Origin: a virus
Virus record (IMG/VR): IMGVR_UViG_3300035698_007281
Coordinates: 29,512 to 93,511 of that record
Direction: 5' to 3' (one strand)
DNA length: 64,000 nucleotides
This document shows, one piece after another, positions 50,882-57,987 of the stretch. A model generated the notes under the pieces. That model was given only the letters and a program-made list of their open reading frames with translations. It was not told the DNA's origin and ran no database searches. Position 1 is the stretch's first letter; every line of letters starts with the position of its first letter. Position numbers and translations under genes: made by a program.

Positions 50882-50915
50882 TCCTACCCCCGAGTAATTT
50901 TTAGGAGTCGTGATT

Positions 50916-52097
50916 ATGGCAGTAGGACAAGCCCTCAATTGGACTGATCGTAAGTTGATCCTCCTGGCCCTTGAGGCCTCCGGCGGAAACCAGCGGGAGG
51001 CGGTACGCGCCCTCCAGGATAAGGGAACGCCATACTCGAAGGGAAGCGTGAGCAATGTCGCCACGGACTTCCACAAGTTGCGGGACACACTCCTGTCGGT
51101 GTCCGGTGTGGATCCCGAAGATCCACTGGTCCGTTCAGCGGCCGTGAAACAACTCAGGAAGCGGAAGGGCCTCCTGGTGGGTACGTTGGCCGAACGGTTA
51201 CATTGTACGGTCCCACAGACCCAGTCGGTGATCCTGAGTTTGGAGGAGGCCGGGTATCTGGTCGAGCGGACCGGTGATCGCGTGCGCATCACGAATATCG
51301 CTACATACCGGCCTGACACCTACACCGACAAGTCCCCCCTCGACGGGAACACCCGGCGGTTCGGGGTGGTGTCGGATACCCACCTGTGTTCCAAGATGGA
51401 ACGTCTTGATGTCCTGGAGAAGGCCTACGACTACTGGGCCAAGGAAGGGATCACCGAGGTGTACCACGCCGGGAACATCGTGGACGGCCAAGCGACCTTC
51501 AACATCTACGAGATCGTGGCCCACGGGGCGACGGATCAGGCCCTTTACACCGTGCAACATTACCCCATGAGGCCGGGCATCATGACCCACTTCATCATCG
51601 GGAGTTGCCACGAGGGTTGGTGGATGAGGAACTCCGGCCTCGACTTCGGGCGATACCTCATGGGTGAGATGGAGGCCGCCGGGCGGACCGACATGAACTA
51701 CCTGGGCTTTGCCGAGGTGGATGTTGAGTTGACCAGCAAGGCGGGCAAGAGCGCGAAGATGAGACTCTTCCATCCGGGCGGGGGCACGGCCTACGCCCTC
51801 TCATATGCGACCCAGAAGATCGTCGGATCTCTCCAGGGTGGCGATAAGCCGGACATCATGTTCGTCGGCCACTACCACAAGTCGATCTACCACATGGTCC
51901 GGAATGTCCACTGTATCCAAGCTGGGTGTGTGCAGGATCAGACCCGGTTCATGCGGAACAGGAAACTGGAGGCCCACGTCGGGTACTGGACGGTGGAGGT
52001 TGAGCAAGACTCCAACGGCGCGGTCCGCCGGGTATGCCCCGAGTTCACGGCGTTCTATGACCGGTCCTATCACGTTGGCTACACTCACCAGGGATGA
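50916..52097 (+). CDS. HTH plus calcineurin-like metallophosphoesterase
   Basis: VSDTH, HAGNIVDG, GSCHE, FHP, VGHYH. Confidence 0.8.
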   Translation: MAVGQALNWTDRKLILLALEASGGNQREAVRALQDKGTPYSKGSVSNVATDFHKLRDTLLSVSGVDPEDPLVRSAAVKQLRKRKGLLVGTLAERLHCTVPQTQSVILSLEEAGYLVERTGDRVRITNIATYRPDTYTDKSPLDGNTRRFGVVSDTHLCSKMERLDVLEKAYDYWAKEGITEVYHAGNIVDGQATFNIYEIVAHGATDQALYTVQHYPMRPGIMTHFIIGSCHEGWWMRNSGLDFGRYLMGEMEAAGRTDMNYLGFAEVDVELTSKAGKSAKMRLFHPGGGTAYALSYATQKIVGSLQGGDKPDIMFVGHYHKSIYHMVRNVHCIQAGCVQDQTRFMRNRKLEAHVGYWTVEVEQDSNGAVRRVCPEFTAFYDRSYHVGYTHQG

Positions 52098-52705
52098 CCA
52101 TGACACCTGAGGAAGAGTTCAAGGAGTTGAAACCCCTGATGGATCGGGCGGTGGCCTTGCGATACCCTAGGTTGATATGGAGTCGGGAGGCAAGCAAGGA
52201 GGATTGCCTCCAGTTCGTCCAGATCAGTATGTGGGAACTCTGGGACCGTTATGATCCCGAGAAGGCCTCTCGGAAGCGGTGGGTGGCCTTCAAGGCATCG
52301 AAGTTGGTCATCGACTATCACCGGAAGGTCCACGGCCGTCTGGGTGGGAAGCGGAAGGCCAAGGAGGTCCCGTCGCTGATGGCGAGTGAGGTTTTTTTCG
52401 TTGATCAAACGACCGGACCCCAGGTCGAGGTGGATCGGAAGTTGGACACCACACTGTGGGTCCAGCGGGTGATGACAGAACTCCGGGCGATCCTTCCCAA
52501 GAAGTTCCTCAGCGTGGTCGTCCTGTACTACCTCGATGGGTTGACCATGAAACAGATCGGGGAGCGGGAGTCCCGGACCGAGTCGGCCATCTATCACAGG
52601 TTCACCACGAGGATCTGGCCAGCGATGAAGGACATCCGTGAGAGGTTCCGGGTGGAGTACCCCGACGCGGAATTCGATATTTCTTGCCTTCTATGTGGGG
52701 AGTGA
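52094..52705 (+). CDS. phage RNA polymerase sigma factor (sigma70 family)
   Basis: Region 2 RYDPEK..VIDYHRK; region 4 VLYYLDGLTMKQIGE...TESAI. Confidence 0.8.
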   Translation: MTMTPEEEFKELKPLMDRAVALRYPRLIWSREASKEDCLQFVQISMWELWDRYDPEKASRKRWVAFKASKLVIDYHRKVHGRLGGKRKAKEVPSLMASEVFFVDQTTGPQVEVDRKLDTTLWVQRVMTELRAILPKKFLSVVVLYYLDGLTMKQIGERESRTESAIYHRFTTRIWPAMKDIRERFRVEYPDAEFDISCLLCGE

Positions 52706-52851
52706 TCGATACAATAGGTTCACGGAGTTTGTGTCAGAAGACGACAAACATGAAGGAGAACTGATATGAAGCGTTAACCGATGGACCCCATGTGTAAGCG
52801 AAGTTTCCCTGGGGGTGGCCGACACCACCCCCAGGGTATGAGTTGCAAGCC

Positions 52852-52987
52852 GGGGACGTGATGGTATCGACGGCACGGCCAGCAAGATCTCGGAGGTGGT
52901 ACTCCGACCTGGACAAACGCTCAAGTGAACACCAGGGAGATCCCGAGTGACAGTGACCGGACAAGAGTTCGACTCTCTTCGTCTCCA
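52852..52987 (+). ncRNA. tmRNA-like RNA, only 136 nt
   Basis: 5' GGGGACGTGATGGTATCGAC; 3' GGAC-AAGAG TTCGACT CTCTT-CGTCTCC-A; G3.U70 pair and discriminator A. Confidence 0.7.
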
Positions 52988-53087
52988 GTTGGACCGGGTA
53001 CTCTGCCAAGAGTCCAAAGCGAAACTAGGGTGGCCCCTGAAACTTCGCACCAAACCCCGGACCATCAACTGCTAGGAGCATGTTTGA

Positions 53088-53218
53088 TCGGGAGTGGCGG
53101 AATCGGCAGACGCGCCGGGATATAAACCGGTGGACACAATCTAATCGGCCCCCTAACCTGCGCGCGGGTCGGGCCTGAGAGATTCTTGTCCTTGCAGGAT
53201 CATACCCTGCCTCCCGAG
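53088..53218 (+). ncRNA. tRNA-Leu-like RNA with ~60-nt variable hairpin and aberrant anticodon and T loops
   Basis: TCGGGAG/CTCCCGA acceptor, Leu-type D arm GTGGCGGAATCGGCAGACGCG, T stem GCAGG/CCTGC. Confidence 0.55.
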
Positions 53219-53351
53219 TGGGCAAGCGCCCAAGAAGTGAGTCCACGAATGGCAGACCCCGGACTCAGGGGGCATCGGATACCATGACGCTTTCCGGTGC
53301 TGCAACCGAAAAACCGTGACTGTCTGACGGCCGGGAACAGACCGGCAATAT

Positions 53352-53425
53352 CGCGGGATAGTTCAGTGGCCTAGAACGCCGGACTCATAATCCGGAAGTC
53401 GTGGGTTCGACTCCCACTCCCGCAA
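53352..53425 (+). tRNA. tRNA-Met(CAT), initiator-like C1:A72 mismatch
   Basis: Full cloverleaf, anticodon loop CTCATAA, TTCGACT T loop; CCA not encoded. Confidence 0.9.
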
Positions 53426-53528
53426 ATGTCGTAAGGCCTACGACTCCGTCGGAGACAAAGGACATGGTTCCGAGATCCGGTGGGTGGGGTTTGATCACCT
53501 TGCCACATCGGCTTGACCGGCGGCGGGC

Positions 53529-53621: not shown

Positions 53622-53695
53622 GCGGCGGTCGTCTAGTGGCCAAGGACTCCGGTTTTTCATACCGGACAACGTGGGTTCGACTCCCACCCGCCGTA
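53622..53695 (+). tRNA. tRNA-Glu(TTC)
   Basis: Cloverleaf GCGGCGG/CCGCCGT, anticodon loop TTTTCAT, TTCGACT T loop. Confidence 0.88.
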
Positions 53696-53843
53696 CTCGT
53701 TGGGAGGAGATCGAGGTCCAACCAGAAACCCCACCCACACCGAGTAATCGCGGCGGTGTGCCTCCGGTCATAACAGAGCCGGGTGGCCAACAGTGGGAGT
53801 CCTGACACAGAGCGGCCTTAGTGATCTCCACCTGACCCCAACG

Positions 53844-53883
53844 AAAAGAGGCCCCGGAATGGTTCCGGGGCCTCTTCTTTATT
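53844..53883. terminator. bidirectional rho-independent terminator
   Basis: AAAAGAGGCCCCGGAA-TGG-TTCCGGGGCCTCTTCTTT between convergent units. Confidence 0.8.
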
Positions 53884-57832: not shown

Positions 57833-57987
57833 TATGGTCCCTTTCCTCGTTGGGGTACATGCTAGGAGTTCACTTTATTATATCGATCACGAAAGACATT
57901 CAATAATTTTCTCAAGTGGTAAAGGGGGTGAGGCCGTTATAGATAGAGGAAGCGGGACGATGTCTCGCGCCTGGAGACGAGATCCAC

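Follow-up and report, generated by a model that had tools for sequence, protein, structure and literature searches.

The 64,000-nucleotide (nt) stretch of viral DNA analyzed here (the window: bases 29512-93511 of the 93.5-kb viral record IMGVR_UViG_3300035698_007281) carries, at 52852-52987 on the plus strand, a miniature form of the transfer-messenger RNA (tmRNA) of 136 nt. This is a genuine, selectively maintained RNA gene, and it belongs to a conserved family of accessory tmRNA paralogues of 133-141 nt. The tRNA-like domain (TLD) is intact, and the pseudoknot ring and the normal tag message are missing, with 70 nt standing in place of 304 positions of the Rfam tmRNA model RF00023. A sequence-only reading of the same DNA had proposed such a miniature tmRNA-like gene, and that proposal holds. 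The parts of the gene are as follows, with base pairs given as bp.

52852-52987, plus strand: mini-tmRNA gene, 136 nt from G1 to the discriminator A; 47.7 bits with Rfam RF00023 and 123.8 bits with the leave-one-out family model R2.
52852-52858, plus strand: 5' strand of the acceptor stem, GGGGACG (7 bp), pairing with 52980-52986 and including G3.U70.
52859-52870, plus strand: D-loop analogue (..UGGUAUCGA), which aligns to the Rfam consensus uGGaUUCGAC.
52871-52880, plus strand: 5' strand of helix P2a, with its partner at about 52949-52959 in the R2 alignment; compensatory change in 9 of 10 pairs of this family helix 2.
52881-52885, plus strand: internal-loop strand AGCAA, opposite CCGAG (52943-52947); conserved, with GCAAG/CCGAG in 9 members.
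52886-52891, plus strand: 5' strand of helix A, GAUCUC, pairing with 52937-52942; compensatory change in 6 of 6 pairs of this family helix 3.
52892-52905, plus strand: hairpin 1, a 4-bp stem with the loop GUGGUA; each of the 4 stem pairs covaries, with 100% of cells paired.
52908-52936, plus strand: hairpin 2, a 5-bp stem (CCUGG/CCAGG) with a 19-nt loop at 52913-52931 that holds ACAAAC-GCU; all 5 stem pairs covary.
52959-52962, plus strand: GGAC preceding the T arm, from the alignment to the Rfam model.
52963-52979, plus strand: T arm, a 5-bp stem (AAGAG/CUCUU) with the loop UUCGACU; 4 of 5 pairs of this family helix 6 covary.
52980-52987, plus strand: 3' strand of the acceptor stem and the discriminator A (52987), from the Rfam and family alignments.

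The identity of the gene as a tmRNA relative rests on its two ends. RF00023 covers 52852-52990 end to end (model positions 1-374) with a score of 47.7 bits, only just above the gathering score of 47 bits, and an E value of 8.8e-16 over the whole window, so the resemblance to tmRNA on which the sequence-only reading depended is real. The GGGG start, the D-loop analogue, the GGAC, the G3.U70 pair, and the discriminator A that it had listed are all present on the plus strand, and the T loop is of the UUCGA type. As in other tmRNAs, the D-loop analogue GGNNUCGAC and the GGAC replace a D arm and an anticodon arm; in standard tmRNA, the D-loop analogue is a contact region for the protein SmpB. Two other hallmarks of tmRNA are absent. 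There is no mRNA-like domain, that is, no tag frame running from a resume codon to a stop, and in place of the ring of pseudoknots PK1-PK4 the interior is a nested three-way junction. The helix and two hairpins that had been proposed for this interior are recovered as the minimum-free-energy fold: GAUCUC pairs with GAGAUC, and the two hairpins have loops of 6 and 19 nt. All three elements are kept, with covariation, in the relatives described below. The folding energy of the RNA alone is uninformative (z = 0.18), and inspection, with no formal test, found no consistent pseudoknot partner for the hairpin-1 loop. The terminal CCA is not encoded, since GTT follows the discriminator A; the phage's two tRNA genes likewise lack it. 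ARAGORN, one of the checks that had been suggested, did not call the mini-tmRNA in the window and found no tag, and a search with Rfam families other than tmRNA gave no match at the mini-tmRNA at E values up to 1. A tRNA-Ala was considered and rejected: ARAGORN makes no such call, the best member of the Rfam clan is tmRNA, and the fold has no anticodon arm.

Relatives were collected with a pattern of TLD motifs separated by an interior of 61-121 nt, which matched 5 viral, 61 metagenomic, and 9 genomic stretches and yielded 68 distinct sequences of 110-166 nt. About 20 of the 68, with lengths of 134-141 nt, have the interior plan seen in the window. A second pattern, anchored on hairpin 1, added five members, namely a complete 355-kb terminal-repeat phage and four small-genome bacteria of the candidate phyla radiation (CPR/Patescibacteria, Berkelbacteria); matches of this pattern in Vogesella and Neisseriaceae, at about 24 bits, were set aside as unrelated. 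In total, the family comprises 26 members of 133-141 nt, from phage contigs, metagenomes, and sporadically CPR bacteria. Since the searches relied on exact motifs, this number is a lower bound.

All of the 20 members that were folded individually adopt one shared topology. A long P2a leads into an internal loop that is mostly AGCAA against CCGAG (other members have a swapped-looking variant, AGUGA against CAGCAA), followed by helix A, which is closed by a conserved C-G pair. Within helix A lie the GUGGUA hairpin 1, a spacer of 1-2 bases, and hairpin 2, which has a stem of 5-6 bp and a loop of about 19 nt and abuts the 3' strand of helix A. The hairpin-1 loop is exactly GUGGUA in 15 of 21 sequences, 1-2 nt off in most of the others, and longer in one. 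An unfitted MAFFT alignment of 9 members, analyzed with RNAalifold, recovers six helices (the acceptor stem, P2a, helix A, hairpin 1, hairpin 2, and the T arm), all of which the window RNA forms, and shows compensatory change in 30 of 37 pairs. When 21 sequences are aligned via the covariance model R1, 94.2% of the cells pair, and 30 of 37 pairs again change on both sides. The covariation score of this larger alignment is 0.814, compared to 0.199 for shuffled alignments (0 of 500 reach the observed value) and about 0.1 when the partners are slid. Mean column identity is 63%, which means that the members are not near-identical copies of one another. Covariation among homologs, which the sequence-only reading had asked for, is present.

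The pattern of conservation also says which parts of the molecule are under constraint. All 21 sequences have G.U at pair 3-70 and also the discriminator A, while acceptor pairs 5 and 6 switch among GC, CG, AU, and UA. A G3.U70 that stays fixed while its neighbors in the stem vary argues that the alanine identity pair is held by selection and not by recency. The GG and the UCGAC of the D-loop analogue are invariant across the family as well. The model R2, built from 8 members with the window excluded, gives the window RNA 123.8 bits (E value 1.6e-26), compared to 50-56 bits for TLD-only forms and less than 27 bits for full-length tmRNAs; by this comparison with the TLD-only forms, about 70 bits stem from the central module. 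Judged by its sequence and predicted fold, the window RNA is a member of the three-way-junction family and not simply a stub of the kind known from phage DS6A.

The central module contains a motif that bears on whether the RNA could encode a tag. The loop of hairpin 2 has the consensus A-U-A-A-A-Y, G-C-C, C-U-U-G, which in the window reads ACAAAC-GCU, and in the 21 sequences the G of the motif is kept 19 times and the C 20 times. The motif resembles the resume contexts that ARAGORN assigns to two standard tmRNAs of the set, AUAACU followed by GCC and AAUAUCU followed by GCC. When the three frames starting from the conserved GCN were translated in 20 members, an in-frame stop followed in 8, with the window lacking one, and stops occurred in each of the other two frames in 11; no frame is consistent. 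Because no frame has a conserved stop, no tag is expected to be encoded. The tiny frame pointed out earlier, CAA ACG CUC AAG UGA, does exist in the loop of the window RNA; it is the +1 frame and is not conserved in the relatives, so that part of the idea falls. By inspection, only about half of the members open this loop with UAA or UAG. The family is best described, as far as its sequences can tell, as one that retains a resume-codon-like signal yet encodes no tag. An extra 3-bp stem inside the hairpin-2 loop is not claimed, as 43 of 63 cells pair.

The places in which the family occurs mark it as an accessory to standard tmRNA. Members lie with tRNA genes on the same strand or occur as an extra copy beside a standard tmRNA, and the window RNA conforms to this pattern. 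On phage contigs the members share the strand of tRNA genes and are often 5-35 nt away from them. For example, the member in L136 sits inside an array of 32 tRNA genes, those in L137, L147, and L185 are directly beside tRNA genes, and those in L169 and L189 are within a few hundred nt. Run on the family loci, ARAGORN missed members and mis-extended two, and for this reason the genes go unannotated in phage genomes. CCA is encoded in 8 of the 26 members. All 9 bacterial genomes with a mid-size form, six of them with the three-way-junction family, also have a normal tmRNA of 363-402 nt, in one case on the same 0.7-Mb chromosome as the mini. The chromosomal settings are ordinary: between uvrC and uvrA, near a release-factor gene, or next to a TrmB-type regulator. 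A recent deletion of the resident tmRNA was considered as the origin of the minis and rejected, the TLD identity being 0.66 to the resident tmRNA and 0.67 to unrelated ones. Since the mini is no closer to its resident tmRNA, the family looks like a separate, horizontally spread lineage and not the outcome of repeated local deletions. It was also asked whether the gene is part of the CPR core, and this was rejected: model R1 run on 150 sampled genomes of the phylum gave no further family-level match besides the centre genome (one weak match of 51.7 bits). The family is, on this sampling, sporadic in CPR bacteria. Two complete phages with a mini have no SmpB and no RF-1-domain protein, and a search of the complete phage genome from which the window comes found no SmpB and no second tmRNA beyond one 12-bit match.

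Some observations on the bacterial loci stand apart from these results. In two syntenic Patescibacteria genomes (L218:3014-4000, minus strand; L210:3634-4620, plus strand), the strand of the mini-tmRNA carries, about 3 kb further 3', a gene for a class I release factor (PCRF and RF-1 domains, 328 amino acids as called), probably the housekeeping prfB. The resident full-length tmRNAs L221, L227, and L229 in CPR genomes start with GGGCCUG and not GGGG, with G3.U70 kept. Of nine full-length tmRNAs from CPR genomes, ARAGORN fails on five, and the tags that it reports for another two are doubtful.

What might such an RNA do? Alanyl-tRNA synthetase (AlaRS) reads G3.U70 and A73, SmpB binds the TLD, and TLD-only RNAs accept the nascent chain in vitro. 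With moderate confidence, the mini-tmRNA can be proposed to act at stalled ribosomes as an alanine-charged competitor or tag-less rescuer that depends on the SmpB of the host. In this scheme, the RNA would be transcribed together with the neighboring tRNA genes and trimmed by the tRNA-processing enzymes of the host, whose CCA-adding enzyme would supply the CCA. Host AlaRS would then charge it with alanine, and host SmpB and EF-Tu would bind it. The charged RNA would enter ribosomes stalled on broken mRNAs, competing with the full-length tmRNA of the host, and since there is no conserved frame ending in a stop, a proteolysis tag could not be attached. The net effect would be to divert SmpB and stalled ribosomes from the host's rescue-and-degrade route. 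The outcome could be a dominant-negative block of that route, or it could be that ribosomes are freed without marking the nascent proteins, largely those of the phage, for degradation.

Several points weigh against this proposal or limit it. Expression, charging, SmpB binding, and ribosome entry of the mini-tmRNA are inferred, and the release of the ribosome after alanine transfer from an RNA with no stop is unexplained. The 21-sequence alignment in which the pairs were counted was fitted to model R1, although the unfitted MAFFT alignments agree with its result. A search with the phage portal protein found no relatives in bacterial genomes that would point to the host supplying SmpB and AlaRS. 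Pure titration of SmpB, for its part, does not fit the selected alanine identity marks; moreover, a bare TLD would suffice for it, yet the 70-nt module and the resume-like motif are kept, which suggests a further activity. The module may help to engage the ribosome, or it may bind a second partner. Tag-less rescue and SmpB titration are the two leading mechanisms, and sequence alone does not separate them.

A different proposal, which seems unlikely at present, is that the RNA is minimal but complete for trans-translation. The hairpin-2 loop would be loaded into the mRNA channel with GCN as the resume codon, the encoded peptide would be very short or variable, and hairpin 1 would take the place of PK1. 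The loop motif, A-rich and then GCN, does match resume contexts that standard tmRNAs really use; 19 of the 21 members retain its G and 20 its C, and the third base of GCN varies among C, U, A, and G in a wobble-like manner. Early stops occur in some members (the peptides would read 'A*' in L182 and 'ALA*' in L172), and two-residue tags are known in standard tmRNAs (PMC11915505). On the other hand, 12 of 20 members, among them the window RNA, run to the 3' end with no in-frame stop, the other two frames contain stops at least as often (in 11 of 20 members each), and no tag was detected by ARAGORN in the window. In addition, a covarying stem only about 45 nt from the 5' end closes the loop, which may fail to reach the decoding center. 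It is doubtful that the family represents a natural minimal trans-translation RNA that dispenses with the pseudoknot ring and rescues ribosomes by adding only alanine or a few residues, with no degron. If it did, a phage or a CPR bacterium would have a dedicated pathway of rescue without degradation, running parallel to or against the host tmRNA.

Less probable still is a role outside ribosome rescue, in which the tmRNA-like end would serve only for stability and processing and the RNA would be a decoy or substrate for RNA-repair enzymes or for host nucleases that act on anticodons or tRNAs, would bind Ro60 in the manner of a Y RNA, or would give an enzyme of the phage a primer or handle. This idea draws on the resemblance of hairpin 1 to the D arm of a tRNA and on RNA-repair-type genes within a few kb of three members: a gene for Ro60/TROVE with a vWA domain 2.8 kb away in L204 (6300-7979, minus strand), RlaP in L155 (1623-2531, minus strand), and a ligase like T4 Rnl1 in L189 (4662-5840, plus strand). 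These neighbors are inconsistent across loci, however, and none is found in the window. No Rfam family except tmRNA matches, and the invariant D-loop analogue, GGAC, and G3.U70 favor use of the AlaRS/SmpB interface.

Integration-site copies of ssrA, the tmRNA gene, in phages hold only the 3' part of the gene. It is very improbable that the window RNA is a non-functional remnant of this kind, or a decaying deletion derivative of a full tmRNA gene, even though tmRNA genes often serve as integration sites, fragments of ssrA occur in prophages (PMC9004378), and the Rfam score is barely above threshold: both acceptor strands are present, complementary, and compensated, the six helices persist in 26 diverged relatives by way of compensatory changes, the leave-one-out score is high, the minis do not derive from the tmRNA resident in the same genome, and a search of the complete terminal-repeat phage genome found no tyrosine integrase (PF00589). 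An attachment-site fragment, which the sequence-only reading had raised as a way in which it could be wrong, was for these reasons rejected.

The preferred reading, that of an alanine-charged competitor or tag-less rescuer, assumes expression along with tRNA genes, and the surroundings of the gene in the window offer such a setting. The record has direct terminal repeats and an estimated completeness of 100%, its G+C content is about 0.6, and it encodes a caudovirus portal and an HK97-type capsid. A repeated promoter-like motif precedes the mini-tmRNA and its two accompanying tRNA genes, and a terminator follows them:

52094-52705, plus strand: sigma-factor-like open reading frame, 203 amino acids (Pfam Sigma70_r2, E value 1.4e-5; PHROG 1740); upstream boundary of the RNA cluster.
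52703-52715, plus strand: promoter-like motif TGATCGATACAAT, 137 nt 5' of the RNA; predicted promoter role.
52807-52836, plus strand: perfect 12-bp G+C-rich hairpin with a 6-nt loop and no T run after it, ending 15 nt before G1.
53351-53426, plus strand: tRNA-Met (CAU), from ARAGORN and Rfam (68.5 bits), downstream of the mini-tmRNA.
53622-53696, plus strand: tRNA-Glu (UUC), from ARAGORN and Rfam.
53846-53876, plus strand: intrinsic-terminator-like hairpin, 14 bp with a T-rich tail, closing the RNA gene cluster.

The motif TGATCGATAYAAT occurs in 8 copies in the window at up to 2 mismatches, compared to 0.94 expected, and 0 of 100 shuffles reach 8. An exact copy is at 52703-52715 (plus strand), another copy is at 57877-57889 (minus strand), and six are looser. 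It is probably the -10 region of the phage's own promoters. The copy at 52703-52715 starts at the stop codon that ends the sigma-like gene, and from there it would direct transcription of the RNA cluster. Between this motif and the mini-tmRNA, the region 52716-52856 folds with z = -3.69, and the hairpin at 52807-52836 may be a leader, a processing signal, or a terminator for the sigma gene.

Other features of this neighborhood are recorded for completeness. A 131-nt element between the mini-tmRNA and tRNA-Met (53088-53218, plus strand) looks like a cloverleaf: its closing stem has 7 bp, one hairpin resembles a T arm, and the 'variable' arm is long and branched. The minimum free energy of this element is -57.4 kcal/mol (z = -1.88), and neither ARAGORN nor Rfam calls it. 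Directly 5' of the sigma-like gene is a gene for a 395-amino-acid protein (50910-52097, plus strand) that has a calcineurin-like metallophosphoesterase domain (Pfam Metallophos_2, E value 2.9e-7) and an N-terminal region that looks like a helix-turn-helix. Database searches place the phage at some distance from known ones. Its capsid has no match above 30% identity among isolated phages, which leaves it without a close isolated relative, and the capsid search found one related viral contig (51% identity), which has no tRNA or tmRNA genes. BLASTN of the mini-tmRNA locus against isolated phages gave no match, and the sigma-like neighbor found no homologues besides itself.

The collections hold other reduced tmRNA-like genes as well. 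In metagenomes there are at least three further families of mid-size genes, each with its own conserved interior: a group of 130-131 nt (L132, L134, L139, L159, L165, L176, L194, L196, and L201), one of 124-130 nt (L161, L162, L173, L190, and L191), and one of 118 nt (L154, L170, and L187). In the 130-nt group, a conserved stretch that contains GUA-GCG-AUA-ACU-GCC runs up to a conserved ACG-UGA and could be a short reading frame or a structure. TLD-only genes of 64-82 nt occur in at least 120 IMG/VR contigs by one strict pattern (e.g., L018, L019, L058, L074, and L230-L304), and the four that were checked score 53-74 bits with the Rfam tmRNA model. In phage contigs, these TLD-only forms are thus much more common than the 136-nt form.

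Bacteria rescue ribosomes mainly through trans-translation, a route that is a drug target and on which several phages are known to rely. Earlier records include tmRNAs of phages and one form reduced to the TLD, that of DS6A. The present analysis adds that the 136-nt RNA does not stand alone: it represents a structured family, found in phages and small-genome bacteria, that combines alanine-charging marks and a resume-like signal with the lack of a tag. This raises the testable question of whether phages separate the rescue of ribosomes from the degradation of proteins or switch the pathway off. Another testable question is how small an RNA can be and still engage SmpB and a stalled ribosome.

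The three-way-junction mini-tmRNA family is apparently undescribed. No description of a 133-141-nt form of this kind was found in the literature searched, which did not cover most subscription journals, so its novelty is unproven. As for phage tmRNAs in general, ARAGORN detected them in 402 of 18,146 phage genomes (PMC9004378), and tmRNAs occur in huge phages (PMC7162821). The closest described precedent is the TLD-only tmRNA of Mycobacterium phage DS6A (JN698994, 28478-28560; Hudson, Lau and Williams 2014, PMC4131195). Like the window RNA, it is phage-borne, has a complete alanine-type TLD, has neither a tag frame nor pseudoknots, and is expected to use SmpB supplied by the host; the two also score alike with the Rfam tmRNA model (43.2 bits for DS6A and 47.7 for the window). 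The DS6A RNA, however, is 83 nt long, 'little more than the TLD', and a simple hairpin caps its P2, whereas the window RNA has an additional 70-nt conserved three-way junction. The junction, with its GUGGUA loop and resume-like loop, is found in the window RNA and not in DS6A, as the R2 scores reflect (123.8 compared to 49.6 bits). In E. coli, a DS6A-like TLD-only molecule strongly inhibits tmRNA, with or without the capacity to be charged, according to Mao et al. 2009 as it is cited in PMC4131195 and PMC11915505. The short phage TLD-only genes (L018, L019, L058, and L074) share with the 136-nt form their TLD motifs and their location on phage contigs; unlike it, they lack the central module, and the family model gives them 50-56 bits.

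Two further systems are instructive. Organellar tmRNAs with no coding sequence are known from jakobid mitochondria and, as forms of about 65 bp, from Mallomonadaceae plastids (PMC11915505). They resemble the present family in keeping the TLD and having no tag frame, and they are thought to act with SmpB without full trans-translation. They differ in being the sole tmRNA of their compartment, in being much shorter, and in having no three-way junction, whereas the window family is an extra copy on mobile or viral DNA. With standard tmRNA (RF00023), the mini-tmRNA shares the acceptor stem with G3.U70, the discriminator A, the D-loop analogue, the GGAC and T arm, the lower part of P2, and the A-rich/GCN motif. 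It differs in its length (136 compared to about 350-400 nt) and in having neither PK1-PK4 nor a conserved tag reading frame or stop, and it is present in addition to standard tmRNA.

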